NCBI GenBank assembly: GCA_964560525.1 | Contig: CAZLLO010000002.1 | Span: 18,221-82,220, forward strand | Source: an uncultured Candidatus Saccharibacteria bacterium | GTDB lineage: Bacteria; Patescibacteriota; Dojkabacteria; SC72 | Direction of reading: 5' to 3' | DNA: 64,000 bases | In this document: positions 5,744 to 39,032 of the stretch, piece after piece | Numbering within the stretch: the stretch's first letter is position 1 | Layout of the letters: the number at the start of each line of letters is the position of its first letter | The notes under the pieces: generated by a model | The model's input: the letters and a program-made list of their open reading frames with translations, nothing else | Told to the model about the DNA's origin: nothing | The model's database searches: none | Program-made: the position numbers and the translations under genes

Positions 5744-7879
5744 ATGGAAAAAACAAAAAGCAAATACAAAAACCTTTTAATTGTTGAGTCTCCTGCGAAA
5801 GCAAAGACTATTAACAAGTATCTAGGTACAGATTACAAAGTCATGGCTACTGTTGGCCATATTATCGACCTCCCAAAGAGTAAGTTGGGAGTAGATGTTG
5901 AGCATAACTACGAGCCTTTGTTTGAAACGATATATGGTAAGGGCAAAATTATAACTGACCTCAAGCGAGCAGTACCTAAAGATGGAAATGTTTTCTTAGC
6001 AATGGACCCTGATCGCGAAGGAGAAGCCATAGCATGGCATGTAAACAGTGTATTAAAGGCTAAGAATATTAAGAGAGTAATGTTCAATGAAATAACTAAG
6101 GATGCAATTTTAGAAGCCGTTCAACATCCAACAGATATTGATGAAAATCTTGTAGAAGCACAGAAAGCAAGAAGAATACTAGATAGATTGGTAGGATACA
6201 AGCTTTCAGAGTTACTTTGGAAAAAGATATGGTATGGACTTTCCGCAGGTAGAGTACAGTCTGTTGCATTGAGATTAGTTGTTGAAAGAGAAGAGGAAAG
6301 AGAGGCTTTTAAAGCTGAGGAATATTGGGATTTTGGAGTAGAGGTTAAGGATGAAAGTGGCAATGTATTAAATGCAAAATTAGCTCAGAAAGATGGAAAG
6401 AAATATATTCCTACAAACAAAGATGAGGTAGAGGGAATTGAAAAAACACTTGGAGCTTCTGATTACATTGTTAAAGATGTAGTTGTTAAAAAGGTTAAGA
6501 AGCATCCATATCCTCCATTTACTACATCTACACTTCAACAAGCTGCAAATAATGTTTTGGGATATTCATCTAAGCGAACCATGGCTATTGCTCAGATCTT
6601 GTATCAGGCTGGTTACATTACATATATGAGAACTGACTCATTCAACTTGAGTGCTAAGGCTGTTGATTCAATTAGAGAATTGATAAACAATAGGTATGGT
6701 AAAGAATATTTACCTGCTACTCCAAACTACTACAAAACCAGAAGCAAGGGTGCTCAGGAAGCTCACGAAGCTATCCGACCTTCAGATATTAACGTTACTA
6801 GAGAGAAGATTGAGGCTCAGTTTGGTAGCGCAGAGGCAAAACTGTACGACTTAATATGGAAGCGAGCAGTTTCTTGTCAGATGACAGACAAGCAGGCTGA
6901 GATTCTAACGGTTTCCATTGTTAACAAGGATGTTAAGAAACCTGAATATGTATTTACATTGGGTGGTGAGATGACTTTGTTTGATGGTTTTAGAAAAGTT
7001 TTAGGTACTGGTAAGGTTGAAGATGATTTACAAGAGATTTCTAAGATTGAGAAGGGTGATACTTTGAAATGGAAGAAGTTTGTTAAGGAGCAGAAATATA
7101 CTCAACCTCCTGCTAGATATACTGATGCATCATTGGTTAAGAAGCTCGAGGCTTTGGAGATTGGTAGACCTTCTACATATGCAACCATAATCTCGACTAT
7201 TGAGGCGAGAGGATATATTACTAAGGAAGCTAAGGCTTTGATTCCTACTGATGTGGGTAGAATTGTTACTAATTTCCTTAGAGACAACTTTAAGAGGTTG
7301 GTAGATTACAAATATACGGCTAAGGTTGAGGCTGAATTGGATGGTATTGCTGCAGGTAAGATGAAGTATGCTCCAGTTATGGATGAGCAATACAAGCCTT
7401 TGGTAGAAGAGATTGCTAAGGCTGAGAAGGATGTTAACAAGGAAGACGTAGTCATACTTGGTAAGGCTGAGGACAAGTGTCCTGAGTGTGGTGGGGAGAT
7501 GATCATTAGAATTGGTAGATATGGTAAATTCCTTAGTTGTGCTAAATTCCCTGAGTGTAAGGGTATGAAGGATTTGTCTGGGAATGAAGAGAGTTTGGAT
7601 TTTAACAAATATCTTAGACCTGAGAAGTGTCCTAAGTGTGGTGGGGAATTGGTGTTAAAGAATAGCAAATATGGTAAGTTCTGGGCTTGTAAGGACTATC
7701 CTAAGTGTAAGGGTACAGTTCCTCTTCTTTTACAAGAGAAGTGTCCTGAGTGTAATCATCCTTTGGTTGAAAGAAGGAGTAAGTGGGGTAGAACATTTAC
7801 TGGATGTAGTAACTATCCTGAGTGTAAGTATATAAAGAAGACGTTTAAGGCTAAGAAGAAAAAGAAGAGTTCAGAGTAA
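5744..7879 (+). CDS. topA: DNA topoisomerase I
   Basis: Toprim start (LLIVESPAKAKTI), catalytic-Tyr region (GYITYMRTDS), and three C-terminal C4 zinc ribbons (CPECGGEM..., CPKCGGEL..., CPECNHPL...). Confidence 0.95.
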   Translation: MEKTKSKYKNLLIVESPAKAKTINKYLGTDYKVMATVGHIIDLPKSKLGVDVEHNYEPLFETIYGKGKIITDLKRAVPKDGNVFLAMDPDREGEAIAWHVNSVLKAKNIKRVMFNEITKDAILEAVQHPTDIDENLVEAQKARRILDRLVGYKLSELLWKKIWYGLSAGRVQSVALRLVVEREEEREAFKAEEYWDFGVEVKDESGNVLNAKLAQKDGKKYIPTNKDEVEGIEKTLGASDYIVKDVVVKKVKKHPYPPFTTSTLQQAANNVLGYSSKRTMAIAQILYQAGYITYMRTDSFNLSAKAVDSIRELINNRYGKEYLPATPNYYKTRSKGAQEAHEAIRPSDINVTREKIEAQFGSAEAKLYDLIWKRAVSCQMTDKQAEILTVSIVNKDVKKPEYVFTLGGEMTLFDGFRKVLGTGKVEDDLQEISKIEKGDTLKWKKFVKEQKYTQPPARYTDASLVKKLEALEIGRPSTYATIISTIEARGYITKEAKALIPTDVGRIVTNFLRDNFKRLVDYKYTAKVEAELDGIAAGKMKYAPVMDEQYKPLVEEIAKAEKDVNKEDVVILGKAEDKCPECGGEMIIRIGRYGKFLSCAKFPECKGMKDLSGNEESLDFNKYLRPEKCPKCGGELVLKNSKYGKFWACKDYPKCKGTVPLLLQEKCPECNHPLVERRSKWGRTFTGCSNYPECKYIKKTFKAKKKKKSSE

Positions 7880-7907: not shown

Positions 7908-8540
7908 ATGCTTCCAAGAGAAAAATATTTAGAAAGGGGTATAGATAGCCTCAGTGATATGGAGTTAATAGCCATAATTATTGGTTCTGGTATTAAGGGT
8001 CATGATTTTATGTCCGTTTCCAGATCTGTGGTATATCAAATACGAAAATCTATAAAGAAGAATGGGAATGTAGATATTAAGGATATTGTTGATATTCTTG
8101 GTATTGGTTTAGCTACAGCTATGAAGATTCTCTCTGGTATTGAATTGGGTAGGAGGTTGTATGACCTAGGTAACAAGGAGAAGATTTCTGTTAGAAATGC
8201 ACAAGAGGCTTACTATTTGTTAAAGGATATGCGAAACAAGAAACAGGAATATATTGTGGGATTGTTTCTTAATTCTAGATTTGAGTTACTAGAACAACGT
8301 ACATTGGCTATTGGTACAGTGGATGGGGCTGGGTTACTTCCGAGGGATGTTATTATTCCTGCATTAGAACTTAATGCTAGTTCTGTTATTATGGCACATA
8401 ACCATCCTTCTGGGGATTCTTTACCTAGTAATGAGGATATTGATGTTACACAGAGGGTAGGGAAAGCGTTAGATTTAGTAGGGATTAAACTACTAGATCA
8501 TATGGTTATAGGGAAGGATGATTGGAAAAGTATTTGTTAA
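7908..8540 (+). CDS. radC: RadC-family JAB/MPN domain protein
   Basis: N-terminal HhH-like region and C-terminal JAMM motif HNHPSGDSLPSNED. Confidence 0.85.
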   Translation: MLPREKYLERGIDSLSDMELIAIIIGSGIKGHDFMSVSRSVVYQIRKSIKKNGNVDIKDIVDILGIGLATAMKILSGIELGRRLYDLGNKEKISVRNAQEAYYLLKDMRNKKQEYIVGLFLNSRFELLEQRTLAIGTVDGAGLLPRDVIIPALELNASSVIMAHNHPSGDSLPSNEDIDVTQRVGKALDLVGIKLLDHMVIGKDDWKSIC

Positions 8541-8937
8541 GCGTATCTACCTTCATTTTGATTTTGTTAAAAATAGTTTCTACAGCAAAATCGAAAGGTA
8601 TAAAAACATCTTGGATATTCCAGATTTCATAATTTTTACCATTGTATCCCAGGGTTTTAGTGCAATACAGAAATTGCTTCTTGGTCATGAATATTATCAA
8701 ATCCTGTTCATCGAGGATCTCTTTTGTAGTTAAAGTCCAAATCTTGGAGGCATATTTCAATAGATCATTTTTAAGAAGAATCTTTTCTGTATATCTACAT
8801 ATTGGACCATCTAAATTTCTTGAAGCTTCAATACCACTTGAACTTACGTTGTTCCCTTTAACATCTTTTGATATTAAATATGCTTCTGCTAAACGACTTC
8901 TGAATGTATTCCCATTACAAACGAAATGAATTTTCAT
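8506..8937 (-). CDS. Low-molecular-weight protein tyrosine phosphatase / ArsC-like
   Basis: N-terminal P-loop VCNGNTFRS (C-x5-R-S) of LMW-PTPs, in a 143-aa protein. Its 3' end overlaps radC convergently by about 35 nt. Confidence 0.7.
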   Translation of the reverse strand: MKIHFVCNGNTFRSRLAEAYLISKDVKGNNVSSSGIEASRNLDGPICRYTEKILLKNDLLKYASKIWTLTTKEILDEQDLIIFMTKKQFLYCTKTLGYNGKNYEIWNIQDVFIPFDFAVETIFNKIKMKVDTLNKYFSNHPSL

Positions 8938-8961
8938 AAATATACTTTACTACACAATTAG

Positions 8962-9303
8962 ATGATTGGAAAAGTATATTATGATAAACTTGATATAGTA
9001 ATGCCAAAGAAATTTGAAAGAAAAATAGAAGACTTTGAATGTGAAAACTGTCATACAAAAGTAAAAGGAAATGGATATACAGACCATTGTCCCAATTGCT
9101 TGTACTCCAAACACGTAGATATTAATCCAGGAGATAGAAAATCTCCTTGTAAGGGCTCAATGATACCAATAGCAGTAGAAGTTAAAAGAGATGGTTACAA
9201 AATACATTACAAATGTAAGAAATGTGGATATATACATAGAGTTAAGTCAGTACAAGAGGATAACTTTGATAGAATATTGGAATTAGTAAAGAAGCCATTT
9301 TAA
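8962..9303 (+). CDS. RNHCP-like zinc-ribbon protein
   Basis: Two Cys pairs (CENCH...DHCPNC and CKKCGY) and a TDHCPNC motif resembling the RNHCP domain signature. This is a 113-aa protein at the start of the AT-rich island. Confidence 0.35.
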   Translation: MIGKVYYDKLDIVMPKKFERKIEDFECENCHTKVKGNGYTDHCPNCLYSKHVDINPGDRKSPCKGSMIPIAVEVKRDGYKIHYKCKKCGYIHRVKSVQEDNFDRILELVKKPF

Positions 9304-9368
9304 AAGTATTTACAGTGACGTAGAGTGCTGTTATAATTTGATGCAATAAGTTAATTATTGCACCCAAA

Positions 9369-10178
9369 TTGATTCTCTCCCTCAAAAAAAATATTTCAGA
9401 ACCCGGTTGGGAATACTTGTATAACCCTCATGTACTTTCTGTTTTTGCAGAATATATGAAAGATCCTACATCAATATCTTTATGGGGTATTACAGGAGAT
9501 TTAGATAATTTAGGTGTTTTTGTTGCGGAAAATGGTAGAGCAAAAGCAGAGAATTTAGTAGATTTATACAATCAGGTAACTAGGAATTATATTAGCAATT
9601 GGTATCGTGAAAACACTAACGATGTACAAGCAGTCTGTTTTCTACCTTGTGGTGAAGAAGTTTTAATTCTTGGAACGACAAAAAATACAAATGTTGTTAC
9701 AAAACTTTTTTCCGAAATCAAAGCAGCAATAAAAGAAAAGATTAATGAATATGATTTCATTGAAGTTGGTGGTACAGGTGCAAGTTTTGGATGCTCAATT
9801 TTGCAAGAAAATTCTACGGATACTCTGATATCTCAGTTGATAAAGGATTATAAAAAAACCAGTGATGACGAGATTATCTACCCACAATATTTAAAAATAA
9901 TTGAACGAATACGAACAATATTAGCGATAGAACTAGATAAGTCCAAATTTAATGATATCTTAGATGGCCAGTATCCAATTCAGATGAGGCAACTTGTATT
10001 ATCGAGAATGTTGTTATACAAATTATCTACGAAGGAACTCATTGCTTCGATGAACAAGTTTGATCCAGAGTGTTTGAAATTAATCTTGAATAGTTTGGGA
10101 GAATCATATGGAATGAATTATGAGAAATCCGCATTTATAGATAACCTTTTGAAAGAAAATGAATCAAATAAAAAATAG
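9369..10178 (+). CDS. Standalone divergent GGDEF-like (palm-domain) nucleotidyl cyclase
   Basis: GDLDNLGVFVAENGRAKAENLV matches the GGDEF block DxDxFKxxNDxxGHxxGDxxL. It is followed about 50 aa later by a PCGEEV (GGEEF-like) motif, then ILGTTKN...KLFSEIKAAIKEKI...EVGGTGAS, matching the post-GGDEF helix and loop. There is no sensory or TM domain; the alpha-helical C-terminal region is about 120 aa. Confidence 0.55.
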   Translation: MILSLKKNISEPGWEYLYNPHVLSVFAEYMKDPTSISLWGITGDLDNLGVFVAENGRAKAENLVDLYNQVTRNYISNWYRENTNDVQAVCFLPCGEEVLILGTTKNTNVVTKLFSEIKAAIKEKINEYDFIEVGGTGASFGCSILQENSTDTLISQLIKDYKKTSDDEIIYPQYLKIIERIRTILAIELDKSKFNDILDGQYPIQMRQLVLSRMLLYKLSTKELIASMNKFDPECLKLILNSLGESYGMNYEKSAFIDNLLKENESNKK

Positions 10179-10767
10179 ACAGACAATTCTGATAGGTGGT
10201 GGCCAGGTTTGGAAAAATGAGACTGTTCCAATAGACGAATATATTGTAAAGCTGGCCAAAGAAGATACCCAATCACCCCAATTATTATTGATTCCAACAT
10301 CATCCAATGACAGAGAAGATTACATACAGGCTGTTAAAAAGATTTATGAATCCTTAGGTTGTGAAGTGAATGTGCTAAGGTTCTTACATAATAAATATAC
10401 AAAGGAAAATGTTAGGGCAGAAATACAAAATTCTTCGATAATATATTTAGGATCTGGAGATCCAGCTATCCTCGAGAATGTATTGTCAGGAATGGATTTA
10501 AAGGAAACCTTTTTAGAGTGCCTTAACAAGTATTCAAAAATATTAGTTGGTTCAAGTGCAGGAGCTGCACTATTGTCGGAAAACTATATTGATGTCCTTT
10601 CCGATGATTTGAAACTCCAGAAAGGTTGGGGAATTATACCCCAAATAACCGTTGTACCGCATTATTCTGATAAGCTAAACATGGGAGATGAGGGCTTCCT
10701 TTTGCTTAGAGATTTGGAGATAGCACATTTTGATTTAGATAAACTTTGTAGAAAAATTCAATTTTAG
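10159..10767 (+). CDS. Peptidase S51 family (dipeptidase E / cyanophycinase-like)
   Basis: IIYLGSGDPAIL and the nucleophile elbow VGSSAGAALLSE (GxSAG) match PepE. The start overlaps the upstream gene by 20 nt. Confidence 0.7.
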   Translation: MNQIKNRQTILIGGGQVWKNETVPIDEYIVKLAKEDTQSPQLLLIPTSSNDREDYIQAVKKIYESLGCEVNVLRFLHNKYTKENVRAEIQNSSIIYLGSGDPAILENVLSGMDLKETFLECLNKYSKILVGSSAGAALLSENYIDVLSDDLKLQKGWGIIPQITVVPHYSDKLNMGDEGFLLLRDLEIAHFDLDKLCRKIQF

Positions 10768-10768
10768 A

Positions 10769-11842
10769 GTGATAGACAAATCAGAATCGATAAAAAGTGG
10801 ATCTGAGGTTTCTATTGTTAATCCAGTATCTGTCCAGCCAGAGAGATTTCATGCGAATGCAGAAGTTACAGATTATCTTGAAAATATAGGTTTCAAAGTA
10901 ACAGATTATACAGCTCTACAGGGGGACGATTTTGAGAGAGTTGATAGGTTTAATTCTGCGGTTGCTTCTGGGGCAAAGGCTTTATTCCCTGTCACAGGAA
11001 ATAACTTTGGAGAAAATCTGATAGATAAAATTGATTACGAAAAAATAAAGGAGTTGAAACCAATGTTTACAACATTTAGTGCAGCTTCTACCTTTCAATT
11101 AGCAATACAATCTCAGTCAGAGCTGGAAACATTTTATGGCCCACACATCTCCTTTATTCAATCTAAATCTAGCTATCGTGAGAATTCATATACGGTTACC
11201 TCATATTTAAATATGCTTTGTGGGACATCTGCAAGGTGGGGATTACAAGGAAAACTCTCTGGCCTTGCGTTTAGGAATAGGTTGGAAAGTGAGGGAACAG
11301 TTATGAGAAATATAATATCTAGAATAGACACTTTAGGTGATATATACAAAGGTGAACCGATACCATTTATAGGAAAAACAGAAGCATCTCAAATGTTTGT
11401 AACGGGGAAACTACTTCCAACTTTTTTGCAGGGTTTGGATGTTGCTGGAAAACTTGGAATAGAGCTAGACTTAAATAATAATATACTCCTTGTTGAATCA
11501 AATGATACCTCGTATGAGAAGGCGTTAGAGCATATGAAATCTATTAATGAAACATATGATTTGTCAAAACTTTCTGCAATCGTCTTAGCCTCTTTTATTC
11601 ATAGAAAGACGTCAGAAAAAGATTTTGGATATTCACTTTACGATAAAACCAGAGCATCAATCTTTGTTAGAGAAGTAGAGAAGATTGTAAAAAACAATAT
11701 TCCTGTCCTGTACGGTTTTCCAATTGGTCATGGAAGGTATAAATTAACCGTGCCAATAGGTATCAATGCAAAATTAGATCTTGCAACAGGCGATTTATAT
11801 TTAACAGAATCACCATATAAAGATGTCAAAAAATCAAATTAA
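10769..11842 (+). CDS. Peptidase S66 family (LD-carboxypeptidase LdcA / MccF-like)
   Basis: KPMFTTFSAASTF...ETFYGPHI aligns to the S66 nucleophile block nPKIfxGYSDiTaL...TfhGP with the Ser retained. The C-terminus YGFPIGHGRYKLTVPIGINAKLD matches the GFPxGH...LPxG...LD block with the catalytic His. The start is GTG. Confidence 0.65.
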   Translation: MIDKSESIKSGSEVSIVNPVSVQPERFHANAEVTDYLENIGFKVTDYTALQGDDFERVDRFNSAVASGAKALFPVTGNNFGENLIDKIDYEKIKELKPMFTTFSAASTFQLAIQSQSELETFYGPHISFIQSKSSYRENSYTVTSYLNMLCGTSARWGLQGKLSGLAFRNRLESEGTVMRNIISRIDTLGDIYKGEPIPFIGKTEASQMFVTGKLLPTFLQGLDVAGKLGIELDLNNNILLVESNDTSYEKALEHMKSINETYDLSKLSAIVLASFIHRKTSEKDFGYSLYDKTRASIFVREVEKIVKNNIPVLYGFPIGHGRYKLTVPIGINAKLDLATGDLYLTESPYKDVKKSN

Positions 11843-12884
11843 AGGAATTTCTCCTTATGACAATGTCGCTTTAGTTACACCAGGGGATTTATTACCACCG
11901 ATGTACAAAGAACAGAAAACAAATATAAAAAATTATCTTAAAAAGATAGGTTATACATGTAAAGACTTGACGAATTGTTATGGAGAAGATGCGGTAATTC
12001 AGAGGGCGAATAATTTGAATAATGCGTTCGAGGATAAAAGCATAAAAGCGGTATTTCCGATTTGTGGAGGTGAACGTTCAGATGAAATTGTAGATTTTTT
12101 AGATTACAGCTTAATATCTCAAAATCCAAAGATTTTTTGTGGATATGCAGGATTATCATATTTACTTAATAAAATAGCTTTTAATGCAAGGATAACAACT
12201 TTCTATGGGCCTCATTTAAATTTAATAAATGATGGAGCTACAAAAAGAGAAACCAATTTTACTATTTGGAACTATTGGAAATTGTTTTCGAATGAAGAAT
12301 ATAAAGAGGATTTAGATTTTAATGTGAATGAAAATGAATATAAAATGGAAAGCAGTCTTAATGGGTTGAAAACTATCAAATATAAAAATATTTTTGCATC
12401 GGAAATATATTCAAAAAGTAGTCCTGATAATTATTTCTTCTATAATAAAAATGCCAAGGGAAAATATTTAGAAGGAACTTCGGTTGTAACCTCTCTTAAT
12501 TCATTAGAAAAGGTTTGCTCAATGTTAATAGAGAATAGAATCGAGGATTTTCTTCTATTTGTTGATTTCTTTGATACGGGTGAAAAGGATATATTAAAAG
12601 TTTTTAAGAAGATATCAAAAGTCTTAATGTTGCAGCATTGTAGTGGGATAATAATTACAAATTTAACGACACACGGAGATTTCAATATGGATCATTTTTA
12701 CACTAGAGAAGAAATTAAAAGCATAGTTGATGATATCTCCGTTTTATTCCAAGAAAAACTAAGCATCCTTTATGGTTTTCCAGTAGGGCATAGTAAATAT
12801 AAATTTGTAGTGCCAATCAATTGGAAAGTTAAAGTTAATTGTGTAAATGGGGATATAACTTTTGCAAATCCTTTTAAAATATGA
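11823..12884 (+). CDS. Peptidase S66 family paralog, predicted nucleophile Ser replaced by Ala
   Basis: NPKIFCGYAGLSYLL...TTFYGPHL aligns to PKIfxGYSDiTaL with Ser to Ala and Asp to Gly. The C-terminal YGFPVGHSKYKFVVPI block is retained. The gene overlaps the upstream S66 gene by 20 nt. Confidence 0.6.
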   Translation: MSKNQIKGISPYDNVALVTPGDLLPPMYKEQKTNIKNYLKKIGYTCKDLTNCYGEDAVIQRANNLNNAFEDKSIKAVFPICGGERSDEIVDFLDYSLISQNPKIFCGYAGLSYLLNKIAFNARITTFYGPHLNLINDGATKRETNFTIWNYWKLFSNEEYKEDLDFNVNENEYKMESSLNGLKTIKYKNIFASEIYSKSSPDNYFFYNKNAKGKYLEGTSVVTSLNSLEKVCSMLIENRIEDFLLFVDFFDTGEKDILKVFKKISKVLMLQHCSGIIITNLTTHGDFNMDHFYTREEIKSIVDDISVLFQEKLSILYGFPVGHSKYKFVVPINWKVKVNCVNGDITFANPFKI

Positions 12885-13546
12885 AAATTCTATGTAAAAG
12901 AGAAGAGATGGAAATTCTGAAAAAGAGGGGAGTGCACAGTCTTGTTCACTTCACTCCGTTATCCAATCTTCAGAGAATTCTTGTTGAAGGACTTAAACCC
13001 TTAAACTCTGCAGGAGAAGAGTTAGTATGTGCAAATCAGAGTACGCGAATCCAAGCAGATGGAGATTTAATAAGCTTCTCAATAGAATATCCTGGTTACA
13101 TGTACCTTCAAAGTCTTATAAAAAAGTGTGGGGAAATATTTGTAATACTGTATTATCCAATCGAACTTCTTGCAGGCAAGAAAGTTTTCATATATAAAAG
13201 CAATCCGGCTATTCCTCGTTGGGGAGAAGCAGAAACTTTTGAGGATTTGTTTTTCGAAGAATTTAGATATAAGAAATTACCCTCCTATTACCCAAGTGAT
13301 CCAAGAGCCGAGATTCGTATGCAGGGATGTATCAATAGTTCTCAAATTCAAAAAATTGTGTTTCCTTCTGTGTTGAAGGAAGACATTCCCCAAATTCAAT
13401 CTCTTTTTCCCGATATAAAAATTTTAATAGATGACAATGTATTTGAACCAAGAATAGATTCCGATTACTGGACGAGTATCCGTACCCAGGGTTTAGATAT
13501 TTGCCCTTTAATATCGGAGACTTGTCCTTCGAAGGCGGTTTCATAA
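12881..13546 (+). CDS. DUF4433 / DarT-like ADP-ribosyltransferase-fold protein
   Basis: The N-terminal LVHFTPLSNLQRILVEGLKP matches the DarT/DUF4433 signature (hyHfTxxxNLxsILxxGL). The protein is about 220 aa, as DarT is. The 4-nt ATGA start overlaps the upstream gene. No adjacent macrodomain (DarG) gene. Confidence 0.55.
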   Translation: MKILCKREEMEILKKRGVHSLVHFTPLSNLQRILVEGLKPLNSAGEELVCANQSTRIQADGDLISFSIEYPGYMYLQSLIKKCGEIFVILYYPIELLAGKKVFIYKSNPAIPRWGEAETFEDLFFEEFRYKKLPSYYPSDPRAEIRMQGCINSSQIQKIVFPSVLKEDIPQIQSLFPDIKILIDDNVFEPRIDSDYWTSIRTQGLDICPLISETCPSKAVS

Positions 13547-13674
13547 AACCTTGCATAACCGTTATTAAATATGTATAATCCATCTGTTATTTAATCTCAT
13601 ATATCCCTGTAATTTTCCTGGATGATATATAAATATCACCCACCAGAGATATTAATAAAAGGAAAGATATAAAA

Positions 13675-14805
13675 ATGGAAAAAACAAAAGAAGTCTTAAC
13701 AGAGACAAAGACTCAAAACAAAGTCTCTAACGTAAAACTCCCAGAAATAATAGATCTACTAAAAGCAGGCTGTCATTTTGGACACAAGAAAAGTGCTTGG
13801 AATCCAAGAATGAAACAGTACATATATGAAGAGAGAAATGGTATTCATATCATCGACTTAGTAAAAACTCAAGAACTCATAAAGACAACCGTAGATGCAT
13901 TAGCAAACCTCTCTGACAAAGGAAACATCCTCATCGTTGGTACAAAAGGACAAGCAGCATCAATAGTTGAAAAAGTAGCAACCGAAAACGGTGCTTTCTA
14001 TGTAAACAAAAGATGGCCAGGTGGACTCTTCACAAACTTTGAAGTAGTAAGAAGAAGTATTCTTTCTTTAACAAAAATGGAAGAGAGTTTAGCAAAAGGT
14101 GGAGAAGATTTGGTTAAAAAAGAAGAACTATTAATGCAAAGAGAAGTTGTAAAATTGGAAAGAATCTACAAAGGTATTAAGTTCATGGATAAACTTCCAG
14201 AAGCAGTAATCATCGTAGATACAAAAGTTGAGAAATTAGCAATCAAAGAAGCAAGAATTGCAGGTATTCCAATCATAGGATTAGTAGATACAAACTGTAA
14301 TCCAGATTTAGTAGACTACCCAATCCCAGCAAATGATGACTCTCTAAAGAGTATCTCATTGCTCTTGGATATCTTAGGAAAAGTAGTTGGCGAATCTAAG
14401 AGATCTCAATCAATCATAGCTTTGAGAAATAGCCAGAAAGCAACCTTAGAACTTCTAAATAGACAGTTCTTGGAGCAAAAGGAAAGACAAGCTAAGATGG
14501 AAGCAGAAGACAGAGAAAGAATGAAGGCATTAAGAGAAGGAAAAGTAGCTGAGTCTAAGGGAACTGTAGTAAGAGTTGTTAAAAAAGATATCAGTGCAGA
14601 AATAGAAGCAGCAGAAGAAGCAAAAAAGATCTCTGATTCTAAGAGCATTGAAGACCTAGGACTTTCTGCAAGAATAGTAAAAGCACTTGAAGAGAACAAC
14701 ATTAAAAATGTAAGTGATCTCTCAGGTAAAACAAAAGAAGATTTAATGGAAATTAAAGGAGTAGGAGAGAAAGCTGCTTTGGATATTTTGAAATCTCTTA
14801 AATAA
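13675..14805 (+). CDS. rpsB: 30S ribosomal protein S2 with C-terminal (HhH)2-like extension
   Basis: S2 core (LLKAGCHFGHKKSAWNPRM...IHIIDL...). It is extended to 376 aa with a coiled-coil linker and a C-terminal IEDLGLSARIVKALEENNIKNVSDLSGKTKEDLMEIKGVGEKAALDIL resembling the RNAP alpha-CTD helix-hairpin-helix. Confidence 0.9.
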   Translation: MEKTKEVLTETKTQNKVSNVKLPEIIDLLKAGCHFGHKKSAWNPRMKQYIYEERNGIHIIDLVKTQELIKTTVDALANLSDKGNILIVGTKGQAASIVEKVATENGAFYVNKRWPGGLFTNFEVVRRSILSLTKMEESLAKGGEDLVKKEELLMQREVVKLERIYKGIKFMDKLPEAVIIVDTKVEKLAIKEARIAGIPIIGLVDTNCNPDLVDYPIPANDDSLKSISLLLDILGKVVGESKRSQSIIALRNSQKATLELLNRQFLEQKERQAKMEAEDRERMKALREGKVAESKGTVVRVVKKDISAEIEAAEEAKKISDSKSIEDLGLSARIVKALEENNIKNVSDLSGKTKEDLMEIKGVGEKAALDILKSLK

Positions 14806-14823
14806 CTTTAAACAAATACTGCA

Positions 14824-15540
14824 ATGGGAGTATCAATAGATGATATTAAAACATTAAGAGCTAAGACATCAGCTGGAATGGGACTTTGTAAAGAAGCTTT
14901 AGTTGCTTCTGATGGTGATATGGCTAAAGCAACAGCATACATAAATGAAAGAAGCGATGTAATCGGAAGACTTCATAACCTTACAGGTGCAAAGATTGGA
15001 CTATGTAAGATAGCTTTTGAAGAAGCTGAAAAAGACTTTGAAAAAGCAGTGGCCTTGATTAGTGAAAGAGGTTGGAACGAACCAACTGCAGACGAAACCA
15101 TTGAAAAAGGAGAGGGTGTTATCGAAACCTACTTGCACGGTATGGATCACAAGCTAGCTGCAATTGTAGAAGTAAAATGTAAAACAGATTTTGTTGCAAC
15201 CAATGATGACTTTAGAGCATTTGCTCATGAAGTAGCATTGCAGGTAGCAGCAATGAAGCCTCTCTATGTTTCTAAAGACAGTATACGTGCAGAAGATGTT
15301 GAGAAAATGAAAGTTATCTTTACCAAAGAAGCTGAGAGTGAAGGCAAACCAGCAAATATCATGGAAAAGATAATTGAAGGTAAATTCTCTAAATACTATG
15401 CAGAAAAATGCTTACTAGAACAGAAGTGGTTTAAGGATGAATCCAAAACAATGGGAAATCTTTTAGATGAGATTACTCAGAAAATGGGTGAACCTATACA
15501 GATTACCAGAATACTTTTCTGGGAATTTGGGACAAAATAA
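14824..15540 (+). CDS. tsf: Elongation factor Ts
   Basis: N-terminal UBA-like LRAKTSAGMGLCKEAL, core CKTDFVATNDDF; follows rpsB. Confidence 0.85.
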   Translation: MGVSIDDIKTLRAKTSAGMGLCKEALVASDGDMAKATAYINERSDVIGRLHNLTGAKIGLCKIAFEEAEKDFEKAVALISERGWNEPTADETIEKGEGVIETYLHGMDHKLAAIVEVKCKTDFVATNDDFRAFAHEVALQVAAMKPLYVSKDSIRAEDVEKMKVIFTKEAESEGKPANIMEKIIEGKFSKYYAEKCLLEQKWFKDESKTMGNLLDEITQKMGEPIQITRILFWEFGTK

Positions 15541-38788: not shown

Positions 38789-39032
38789 TTAAAAACTAGA
38801 AATCTTTTCTAAGGTAATATATAATATAAATACAAAGATCTAGCGTCCGAATTGTCACCGCATGGTGCGCGTTCCTAGACAAGCACTAGGATAGGCGTTA
38901 GATCGAATTTTTATATATCCATTCTTCTCCAATCTTATTTCTTATAACTTGCCTGTAAACTTTACTATCGAATGGACACATTTGATCTTGTCCCTCTGGG
39001 GTTAACACAATAACACAACTTAACAAAGAACT

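Follow-up and report, generated by a model that had tools for sequence, protein, structure and literature searches.

DarTG1 phage defense is a precedent for an effector that ADP-ribosylates DNA. Its DarT1 toxin modifies guanine in ssDNA, and the partner protein relieves the toxicity. To our knowledge, S66 and S51 are the only peptidase families that have been demonstrated to split the carboxamide linkage joining an amino acid to a nucleotide. MccF, a member of S66, and MccG, a member of S51, both act on processed microcin C by hydrolyzing its aminoacyl-nucleotide bond (PMC9239234). As for DarT1, residues R52, D54, M71, N104 and E152 are essential (PMC11543638). In the 64,000-nucleotide stretch of DNA analyzed here (hereafter, the window), S51 and S66 peptidase genes, a DarT1-like gene and a gene for a GGDEF-fold protein that we call PALM lie together between radC and rpsB. 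Since the same combination recurs in unrelated bacteria, these genes probably constitute a new nucleotide-based conflict module. The original prediction took the combination to be undescribed, and we likewise found no published description of PALM together with an S51/S66 peptidase and a DarT-like protein; PADLOC returned no matches.

The insert between radC (left flank; Pfam RadC, E 3e-34) and rpsB (right flank) is a true accessory island (8541-13546, no strand assigned), as had been proposed, since three close relatives with TopA at least 90% identical carry other small genes there instead (385 plus 83 aa, 202 aa and 280 aa, respectively) and blastn synteny with two relatives of about 79% DNA identity is lost at 8538-8540 and regained at 13544-13547. 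The 5-kb island is horizontally acquired and its insertion site is hypervariable. With 32.6% GC versus 36.2% for the remaining window, it is the lowest-GC 5-kb stretch of the window and, among sliding windows, falls in the bottom 1.5%; locally, at 12.0-12.75 kb, GC dips to 27-28%. The predicted drop in GC is real, but smaller than the 27-30% against 38-40% first claimed.

Five plus-strand genes, encoding PALM (9369-10178), an S51 peptidase (10159-10767), two S66 paralogues termed S66a (10769-11842) and S66b (11823-12884), and a 221-aa DarT1-like ADP-ribosyltransferase (12881-13546), follow one another: PALM and S51 overlap by 20 nt, S51 and S66a are 1 nt apart, S66a and S66b again overlap by 20 nt, and S66b overlaps the DarT1-like gene by 4 nt. 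The ORF list agrees with the original prediction in these positions and in all four junctions, and the view of the five genes as one unit is borne out by the same five-gene order, at 45-54% identity, at three other loci (L001, L003 and L004). The promoter-like site of this operon (9309-9337, plus strand; TTTACA-17-TATAAT with an upstream TG, 11 of 12 matches) lies 32 nt upstream of the PALM start; it is the best-scoring site of the region, as a consensus match only, the total of such sites there being not above chance. The island cannot accommodate a peptide gene as well, since the sole intergenic gap, 9304-9368, holds this site.

Two further genes precede the operon. The RNHCP zinc-ribbon protein (8962-9303, plus strand) had been correctly identified (Pfam RNHCP, E 1.4e-25) but does not belong to the same unit, because a strong promoter-like site separates it from PALM and their adjacency is not conserved: among the other PALM loci examined, RNHCP is found near PALM at L037 only, 8 kb apart. 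The opening codons of the listed ORF lie inside a 17-nt repeat copied from the 3' end of radC, and the true start is perhaps the internal ATG at 9001. The copies of this direct repeat, GATGATTGGAAAAGTAT (8517-8533 and 8961-8977, plus strand; repeat family D7), are 100% identical, spaced 444 nt apart, and bracket a low-molecular-weight phosphatase/ArsC-like gene (8506-8937; Pfam LMWPc, E 4.6e-6, with weak NCBIfam arsC matches), which lies on the minus strand, unlike the other six island ORFs, and is absent beside PALM at the other loci examined. Both genes are island cargo outside the conserved module.

PALM is an orphan nucleotidyltransferase-like protein whose predicted fold comprises a palm (beta-alpha-alpha-beta-beta-alpha-beta), superposable on GGDEF domains, and an extra C-terminal helical domain of about 120 aa with invariant Arg, Lys and Tyr residues of its own. 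The structural part of the initial claim of a GGDEF-like cyclase is thereby confirmed, but the label is a statement on fold only: PF00990 matches neither the window protein at E<=0.1 nor any of 30 family members at E<=1, and Pfam, NCBIfam and PADLOC give the call no support. Residues D44, D46, G95, E96 and E97 are invariant in the family, as are the motifs GDLD and P(S/C)GEE(V/I), matched by eye to DxD and RxGGEEF, respectively; these invariant acidic residues are consistent with a catalytically competent site. In a manual register against the PleD motif, the positions of the guanine-specifying Asn/Asp pair, PleD N335 and D344, are occupied by Val or Phe and by an invariant Glu, respectively. 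In addition, PALM::S51 fusion proteins followed by S66 are encoded on 10 contigs (P0085 and P0123, for example).

The original S51 and S66 assignments are well founded: the S51 protein (PepE/cyanophycinase/MccG family) matches Pfam Peptidase_S51 with E 5e-22, and S66a and S66b each contain both the N- and C-terminal S66 domains of Pfam. Regarding the three serine peptidases that had been claimed, S51 and S66a retain intact triads and S66b does not. The GSSAGA serine and the PH histidine are kept across module S51 proteins, and at the third triad position the window protein and most of the others have Asp, like MccG. The complete triad of S66a was located by motif alignment in TFSAAS (Ser), LLVES (Glu) and GH (His); the protein has as ortholog, in Microgenomates-type loci, the S66 encoded after PALM-S51, and its top PDB match is LdcA, a muramoyltetrapeptide carboxypeptidase (E 2e-6), followed by MccF (E 6e-5). 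S66b, whose gene adjoins that of the DarT-like protein, has lost its nucleophile Ser (Ala in the window, GYAGLS; Gly in the L001 ortholog, GYGSLS) and therefore probably does not add a third active peptidase; its acid residue is changed from Glu to Asp and its His is retained.

The DarT-like identity and fold claimed at the outset are supported by phmmer against the PDB, which matches E. coli C7 DarT1 (chain 8baq, E 2e-7), and by Foldseek, which, for a model with pLDDT 80.7, places the same DarT1 first (E 8e-11, TM 0.68/0.72) and DarT2 structures next. The window protein has no match to Pfam DarT (PF14487) at E<=0.1, and NCBIfam and PADLOC likewise give no support; its clade members P0003 and L005 pass or nearly pass PF14487. 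In a profile search, all other matches beyond P0008 are PF14487 proteins, save the weakest (P0215), and a score gap separates the clade (at least 295 bits) from canonical DarTs (at most 136 bits). Residues R56, S67, M74, N108 and E144 correspond to DarT1 R52, S63, M71, N104 and E152, and the last four are invariant in the clade; DarT1 D54 is aligned to Gln58, at a position that varies within it. The protein looks catalytically competent and, as a DarT1-type transferase, would be directed at guanine.

Canonical relatives encode NADAR-DarT1 directly downstream of DarT (E 1e-82 to 1e-91). An HMM built from these canonical NADAR-DarT1 proteins has no match in the window or in L001-L040, and Pfam detects neither a NADAR domain (PF22397) nor a macrodomain, the antitoxin type of DarTG2, in the island genes. 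Upstream of each DarT-like clade member examined lies an S66 gene of the S66b type, and none has a NADAR antitoxin beside it; the clade is always embedded with PALM. The DarT-like gene, found in 7 clusters, is a rare add-on to the module and so cannot be the general effector output that had been suggested.

The module itself is rare: 1.84 billion proteins yielded 93 clusters, and a pattern scan of 185,579 species found it in 28. Among 28 species-level genomes, PALM adjoins an S66 gene in 22, with three gene orders represented, and S51 in 14. The conserved core is PALM plus S66, usually with S51 or another serine hydrolase and sometimes with a methyltransferase. Where S51 is absent, it is replaced by an S33-like hydrolase (L035, L038) or by PF06821 (L021-23, L025), and exopeptidases recur beside the module, with M29 adjoining it in L009. 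In a census of 144 flanking genes, hydrolases and SAM methyltransferases alone recur; transporters and cell-wall genes (Mur, AmpG, Mpl) do not, which argues for a self-contained and intracellular module.

PALM, S66 and DarT-like genes are also found together on gut-metagenome contigs, in an order that differs from that of the window, so that the co-localization anticipated by the original prediction is seen both there and in L001, L003 and L004; none of the refuting outcomes that the prediction had named came about. In gut clusters L005 and L079 the order is S66-(MTase)-DarT-like-HprK-like-PALM-TIM-LeuRS-NTP_transf_5-carrier protein-ABC exporters. These gut-type clusters, of two diverged lineages, carry, in the operon of the module, a LeuRS that is bona fide (998 bits) and looks like an extra one, and they lie beside ABC exporters on an element with integrase, transposase and TraG. 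For aminoacyl-adenylate mimics, the classic sign of self-resistance is a synthetase gene within such a cluster (agrocin 84, mupirocin, albomycin).

The reading that we favor, with limited confidence, is that the operon makes and destroys an amino-acid–nucleotide conjugate inside the cell, for biological conflict. The operon would be self-contained and mobile, and the conjugate, an aminoacyl- or peptidyl-nucleotide, would serve a toxin/immunity or abortive-type system. PALM would build the nucleotide-containing product from NTP, and S51 and S66a, on family-level precedent, may hydrolyze this product or its toxic form as the immunity or turnover arm. In the window, the core module would have gained a second pair, namely the DarT1-type transferase and the S66b that lacks the nucleophile; S66b, at the place of an antitoxin, might hold or regulate the transferase via binding, not catalysis. 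The pairing of a synthase with hydrolases is suggested by the fact that S51 (MccG) and S66 (MccF) enzymes both hydrolyze aminoacyl-nucleotides, and the peptidyl-nucleotide option of the original prediction gains support because MccG, besides MccF, cleaves processed microcin C (PMC9239234).

In line with the conjugate, the PALM::S51 proteins recall fused synthase/hydrolase pairs, LeuRS lies inside the gut-type operons, the island site is hypervariable, and the DarT1 residues are kept in a clade that lacks NADAR. Against it, PALM is unrelated to MccB, the window has no precursor-peptide gene and no exporter, the substrates of S51 and S66 are deduced from family alone, and S66a is nearer to LdcA than to MccF. 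A dead S66 as antitoxin cannot be general, since the S66 beside the DarT-like gene in gut clusters retains its nucleophile serine. More tentatively, we propose that PALM founds a new palm-fold enzyme class whose product is an acylated nucleotide signal or toxin, its level set by MccG/MccF-type amidohydrolases (sometimes fused), and that in the DarT1-like clade a dead S66 has taken over from the glycohydrolase antitoxin and would couple ADP-ribosylation to the same molecule.

It is possible, though rather doubtful, that the locus is a second-messenger defense, with PALM as a Cas10/mCpol/GGDEF-type cyclase or oligomerase, the DarT1-like protein as DNA-ADP-ribosylating effector and the peptidases as effectors or regulators. 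At L018, PALM occurs with a CARF-sigma54 regulator and without a peptidase, which favors an oligonucleotide signal over an amino-acid conjugate, but the CARF link is limited to this one locus. No sensor domain (CARF, SAVED etc.) is recognizable in the peptidases or in the DarT-like protein, and the latter, encoded at a handful of PALM loci, is therefore not a general effector. The silence of PADLOC and the viral contigs, where no PALM was found, also weigh against such a defense, which leaves the amide hydrolases as obligate partners and the PALM-S51 fusion unexplained.

An exported Trojan-horse antibiotic appears unlikely. Here PALM, the DarT-like protein and the kinase, methyltransferase and TIM-barrel phosphodiesterase of the gut clusters would make or tailor an aminoacyl-adenylate mimic, with S66/S51 as self-immunity and LeuRS as resistant target. 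The gene order of L005 and L079, including LeuRS, carrier protein and ABC exporters, and the MccF/MccG precedent speak for it; however, exporter, operon LeuRS and carrier protein are all missing from the island and from almost every CPR locus, the sole CPR LeuRS neighbor (L009) is within chance expectation, and no known pathway has a palm-fold or ART-fold enzyme in such a role.

Still less probable is pure resistance or scavenging, in which S51, S66a and S66b would detoxify or catabolize imported peptidyl-nucleotides or peptides and PALM and the DarT-like protein would be unrelated passengers. Stand-alone MccG and MccF homologs do confer basal McC resistance (PMC9239234), and the exopeptidases recurrent beside the module fit this idea, but it explains neither the near-obligate PALM-S66 linkage across phyla and the PALM::S51 fusions, nor the translational coupling, nor why the DarT-like gene is again with PALM in rearranged clusters. 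Finally, routine recycling of peptidoglycan peptides by LdcA and PepE as a trait conserved in the lineage, the mundane muropeptide-scavenging alternative of the original prediction, is highly improbable: although S66 is the LdcA family, LdcA is the best PDB match of S66a and a weak NCBIfam LdcA match exists, the scores (47.1 bits for S66a, 25.1 for S66b) are far under the 378-bit equivalog cut-off, the module S66s share only 22-23% identity with a canonical S66 of GYSD type that L001 encodes 2 kb away, the three close relatives lack the island, the module is rare, and Mur, AmpG and Mpl are not recurrent among flanking genes.

If the proposed scheme holds, PALM would add to the nucleotide-signal/toxin repertoire a new enzyme family of GGDEF fold that no sequence model recognizes, and the operon would be the first setting where hydrolases of MccF and MccG type act jointly on an endogenous product instead of microcin C. 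It would also provide the first DarT-family transferase under control other than that of a macrodomain or NADAR hydrolase, and, for CPR/Patescibacteria, a group whose accessory genes have hardly been characterized, a rare and directly testable way into conflict biology. The combined logic of a PALM conjugate and an S66-coupled DarT1, mainly in CPR and gut mobile elements, would be new to bacterial conflict systems, and the gut-type clusters with embedded LeuRS may specify a new natural product directed at an aminoacyl-tRNA synthetase.

Taken together, the locus resembles several described systems in part. With the mcc system it shares the two peptidase families, with Ser-His-acid triads in S51 and S66a, and a mobile-element location; however, it lacks the MccA peptide, the MccB (ThiF-like) adenylyltransferase and the MccC exporter (Pfam and NCBIfam detect no ThiF-like gene or transporter among island genes), the partner is a GGDEF-fold enzyme, and the sequence similarity to MccF is no stronger than E 1e-4 to 1e-11, the aminoacyl-nucleotide activity of the island enzymes being predicted. 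With DarTG1 it has in common a small stand-alone ART in an operon, the DarT1 fold and the equivalents of R52, S63, M71, N104 (guanine-coordinating) and E152, whereas D54 is not conserved, an upstream S66 (pseudo)peptidase takes the place of a NADAR or macrodomain partner, and the clade always accompanies PALM.

PALM shares its palm fold with GGDEF cyclases, the Cas10 palm and mCpol (Panoptes OptS), its D-x-D and G-E-E motifs fall at metal-ligand positions in a by-eye alignment with GGDEF, and one PALM locus has a CARF-domain neighbor, as is the case for mCpol and Cas10 systems. PALM differs from these in having a hydrophobic residue for the guanine-binding Asn of GGDEF and the additional C-terminal domain, and it is obligately partnered by serine amidohydrolases instead of CARF, SAVED or TM effectors. 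As in GGDEF-EAL, RelA/SpoT and the toxSAS-SAH toxin-antitoxins, which pair or fuse synthases and hydrolases of small nucleotides, the enzyme that builds the nucleotide is linked genetically, and at times by fusion, to a hydrolase, and this analogy suggests production and removal of one molecule; the island hydrolases, however, are of peptidase type (amide/ester) rather than phosphodiesterases or pyrophosphohydrolases, which implies an acyl linkage in the product.

The radC-rpsB region encodes a minus-strand ORF of 143 aa (8506-8937), with a weak LMW-phosphatase/ArsC-like match in Pfam and NCBIfam, and six plus-strand ORFs: RNHCP (8962-9303), a GGDEF-fold protein here called PALM (9369-10178), S51 (10159-10767), S66a (10769-11842), S66b (11823-12884) and a DarT-like protein (12881-13546). 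The last five adjoin closely: PALM overlaps S51 by 20 nt, S51 and S66a are 1 nt apart, S66a overlaps S66b by 20 nt, and S66b overlaps the DarT-like gene by 4 nt. The gene map of the original prediction is reproduced by the ORF list. Its RNHCP, S51 and two S66 calls were matched in Pfam (both S66 domains being found in each of the two genes), which also placed RadC in the upstream flank. Relatives were chosen via TopA, the window TopA belonging to a cluster of at least 90% identity present on long contigs. Three of them share with the window the order MreB-MreC-PBP2-DprA-TopA-RadC ... S2-Tsf-Frr, with the radC-rpsB gap occupied by proteins of 385 and 83 aa, by a 202-aa protein or by one of 280 aa that weakly matches Prok-JAB. 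As the genes found there differ, the gap is a hypervariable cargo site. In blastn comparisons with two relatives (about 79% identity), synteny is lost at 8538-8540 and regained at 13544-13547, which delimits the island to 8541-13546 and makes it a true accessory island, as had been claimed. Over the 64 kb, no 5-kb stretch has a lower GC content, and within the island GC falls locally to 27-28% around 12.0-12.75 kb; the GC dip is real but smaller than described (32.6% for the island vs 36.2% for the rest of the window).

With regard to the cargo of the relatives, the 280-aa gene lies at 9501-10343 of contig L078 and the 202-aa gene, encoding an acidic protein that matched nothing, at 11858-12466 of contig L077, while the 385- and 83-aa proteins of the remaining close relative are unknowns. 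One close relative has an extra 177-aa gene between topA and radC. Downstream of the island, rpsB (13675-14805) encodes an S2 of 376 aa in the window lineage (relatives L077 and L078), and S2 orthologs show an unusual fusion in precomputed Pfam data, with an RNA_pol_A_CTD/HHH_5-like C-terminal extension beside Ribosomal_S2.

No convincing direct or inverted repeats flank the whole island. The sole standout is a perfect 17-nt direct repeat, GATGATTGGAAAAGTAT, at 8517-8533 and 8961-8977, the left copy being the radC 3' end and the right copy the start of the listed RNHCP ORF. Since the repeat brackets the phosphatase-like gene, it suggests that this gene arrived separately, by insertion with target duplication. 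The sequence further suggests an internal ATG at about 9001 (MPKKFERK) as the true RNHCP start. The promoter-like site that scored best in the region (TTTACA-17-TATAAT plus TG; 9309-9337) separates RNHCP from the PALM gene; therefore, the operon proper consists of the five overlapping genes. These are the five coupled genes of the original prediction, and RNHCP falls outside the unit; neither RNHCP nor the phosphatase-like gene co-occurs with PALM at other loci. A riboswitch and a precursor-peptide gene were sought in the island, and Rfam gave no match there. The only non-tRNA Rfam match of the window is a DUF3800-IX RNA at 38837-38908 (+), with a gathering-level score of 56.6 bits.

PALM found no match in Pfam, NCBIfam, PADLOC or PDB sequences and, as with the DarT-like protein, which Pfam and NCBIfam also missed, its assignment came through structure prediction and PDB searches. 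Homologs (55 word-indexed) come for the most part from CPR bacteria, and an exhaustive profile search of 1.84 billion representatives returned only 93 clusters at 50% identity, so the family is small and rare. Its alignment shows two invariant motifs, TGDLDNLG..NGR.AENLVD.YN and P(S/C)GEE(V/I), and further conserved Tyr, Arg, Lys and Asp residues in the C-terminal half. In a manual register, the acidic motifs coincide with the metal-ligand positions of GGDEF domains, and the guanine-specifying Asn is not kept. No family member matched PF00990 at E<=1, and one weakly matched Cas10-Cmr2_palm2. The term GGDEF-like is thus right as a statement of fold, and cyclase activity is putative. A Uhrbacteria homolog (L027, 9896-10765) reads GDLNNLG, with the second Asp replaced by Asn, and lies among glycosyltransferases without an S66 or S51 neighbor; it may be degenerate or repurposed.

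Three other loci (L001, L003 and L004) carry all five genes in identical order and with similar overlaps, at 45-54% identity, and the island genes are accordingly co-localized in other genomes. Among 28 species-level genomes, analyzed by our own ORF calling and phmmer, S66 directly adjoins PALM in 22 and S51 does so in 14, in three layouts (PALM>S51>S66; PALM> <S66<S51; PALM>S66). The hosts comprise Microgenomates/Daviesbacteria, Saccharibacteria, Paceibacterota, Kaiserbacteria and several gut 'Alphaproteobacteria' MAGs. The viral contigs of IMG/VR yielded no PALM. Where S51 is missing, a different serine hydrolase substitutes for it: PF06821 in L021-23 and L025, and an alpha/beta hydrolase of S33 type in L035 and L038. 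PALM is fused to S51 in two cluster representatives; one of these PALM::S51 fusions, with S66 coming after it, was recovered from independent samples on 10 contigs. A SAM methyltransferase lies 3' of S66 in five loci, and in L009 the module lies next to an M29 aminopeptidase gene. When 144 flanking proteins were surveyed with Pfam, hydrolases and methyltransferases were the only ones to recur; transporter, cell-wall and known defence genes did not.

Two loci have further neighbors. In L084 (897-10334), archease and RtcB (RNA ligase/repair) immediately precede the PALM::S51 fusion and S66, which are flanked by proteins of 564 and 598 aa that matched nothing in Pfam. In L009, the PALM-S51-S66-methyltransferase operon is followed after 366 nt by ThiF-like and YcaO genes (12809-15149), a pair of azoline/RiPP type, and preceded by M29 aminopeptidase and LeuRS genes, an arrangement absent from other loci. 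This LeuRS adjacency in a CPR locus was set aside as within chance expectation.

From these folds, residues, linkage, fusions and island status, we infer the chemistry and biology of the module. As the best-supported reading, we tentatively propose that the conserved core may make and hydrolyze an amino-acid–nucleotide conjugate, as a self-contained, intracellular synthase/hydrolase module and conflict element that would spread horizontally. PALM would be the enzyme that uses an NTP, with S51 and S66 as the hydrolytic arm for immunity or turnover. The conjugate reading fits the PALM::S51 fusions, the exchange of S51 for other serine hydrolases and the presence of LeuRS within gut-type operons. 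In line with this notion, the two hydrolase families of PALM are, according to published findings, exactly the two known families of aminoacyl-nucleotide hydrolases (PMC9239234).

A defence system based on a cyclic oligonucleotide, in which DarT is the effector, appears rather unlikely. It would draw on the faint Cas10-like signal and on a Zixibacteria/Zixibacteriota MAG (L018, 5319-8058), in which a 634-aa Cas_NE0113 (CARF)+sigma54-AAA+ activator lies 23 nt 3' of PALM; this neighbor is the sole hint that the PALM product may be a CARF ligand. That locus has no S66 or S51, and XRE-like and DUF5906 primase-like genes lie upstream. However, sensor domains are lacking and the DarT-like gene is rare.

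The gut-metagenome contigs bear on a third reading, an exported Trojan-horse antibiotic pathway. In L005-L008, S66 is followed by the DarT-like gene, an HprK-like P-loop protein, PALM (240 aa), a TIM-barrel protein (weakly CbiR-like), LeuRS, NTP_transf_5, a carrier protein and ABC exporters, with TraG, integrase and transposase upstream. L079 and L080 hold the same set with an inserted methyltransferase and diverged sequence; L081 shows S66, DarT-like and HprK-like genes before the contig ends. In L005 (6960-16645) and L079 (329-8514), the genes from S66 to a full-length bacterial LeuRS form one operon, with NTP_transf_5, carrier protein and ABC exporters in its vicinity, and resemble a biosynthetic cluster in which the synthetase confers self-resistance. 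The Trojan-horse pathway matches these clusters well but the exporter-less CPR island poorly, and is improbable for the module. Resistance or scavenging alone is more improbable still.

Just upstream of S66, these clusters conserve a tRNA-like 3' fragment (…TTGGTTCGAATCCAAC.CCAG…; L005 about 6870-6960, L079 about 2230-2372), uncalled by ARAGORN and Rfam, which is possibly the integration-site remnant of a mobile element. A dedicated tRNA-Leu beside the clustered LeuRS was discarded, as ARAGORN reported tRNA-Val(AAC) in L079 and none in L005. A 38-aa 'gene' upstream of the L079 S66, considered as a precursor peptide, is really tRNA.

Two of the three predicted Ser-peptidases keep their catalytic Ser: S51 retains GxSAG and His, with Asp at the third triad position in the window (the MccG triad is Ser-His-Asp; PMC9239234), and S66a retains Ser, His and Glu. 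S66b, however, has Ala in the nucleophile column (Gly in L001) and Asp in place of Glu, with His kept, and is predicted to be inactive. The single S66 of each gut cluster retains Ser, so nucleophile loss came after S66 duplication. The module S66s share only 22-23% identity with the canonical S66 of GYSD type that L001 encodes 2 kb away from its cassette, score far under the NCBIfam LdcA cut-off, and have a mixture of LdcA, MccF and MccF-like proteins as PDB neighbors. Peptidoglycan recycling, the mundane muropeptide or peptide operon of the original prediction, is highly implausible and was rejected on phyletic, score and neighborhood grounds, the island being absent from three close relatives, the LdcA score low and cell-wall genes not recurring.

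The predicted DarT-like identity of the 221-aa protein was borne out by phmmer against the PDB (E. coli C7 DarT1, E 2e-7) and by Foldseek with an AF2 model of pLDDT 80.7 (top match DarT1, E 8e-11, TM 0.68/0.72, DarT2 structures ranking lower). When the essential DarT1 residues (PMC11543638) were mapped onto it, R52 (window R56) was conserved, and S63 (S67), M71 (M74), the guanine-coordinating N104 (N108) and E152 (E144) were invariant in its clade; D54 (Gln58) was not conserved. A profile search recovered a tight clade of seven clusters (at least 295 bits), one intermediate, and canonical PF14487 DarTs at no more than 136 bits. The more distant relatives, from 33 metagenome loci, are canonical DarT1, and a check of their neighbors found no S66, S51 or PALM; the S66 link is thus specific to the small clade. 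Among 15 canonical loci inspected for neighbors, 11, the majority of those with sufficient downstream sequence, have directly downstream a NADAR-type gene of about 230 aa, MA(I/N)RPVF-type, and the three of these genes that were scanned matched PF22397, 'DarT1-associated NADAR antitoxin', at E 1e-82 to 1e-91. A custom HMM built from canonical NADARs found none in the window or any PALM locus.

In the window, the proposed conjugate module has gained an ADP-ribosyltransferase of DarT1 type, guanine-directed and apparently competent, the usual NADAR partner being replaced by the upstream, translationally coupled, nucleophile-less S66b, for which a binding or regulatory, antitoxin-like role may be proposed. 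That this amounts to a truly new logic, in which a palm enzyme carries out acylated-nucleotide chemistry and a DarT has a peptidase-fold antitoxin, is a doubtful but conceivable extension. Together, our findings confirm the original observation and part of its interpretation, with corrections to GC, RNHCP, cyclase and S66b.

No island protein was matched by PADLOC, so the island does not belong to the catalogued defence systems, and our literature search found no papers linking S66/LD-carboxypeptidases to DarT, GGDEF/mCpol or phage defence, in keeping with the earlier statement that no system of such composition had been described. We rate the island as a probable nucleotide-centred conflict system of undescribed composition, which is partly like mcc, DarTG1 and GGDEF systems and lies outside each of them by their defining features.
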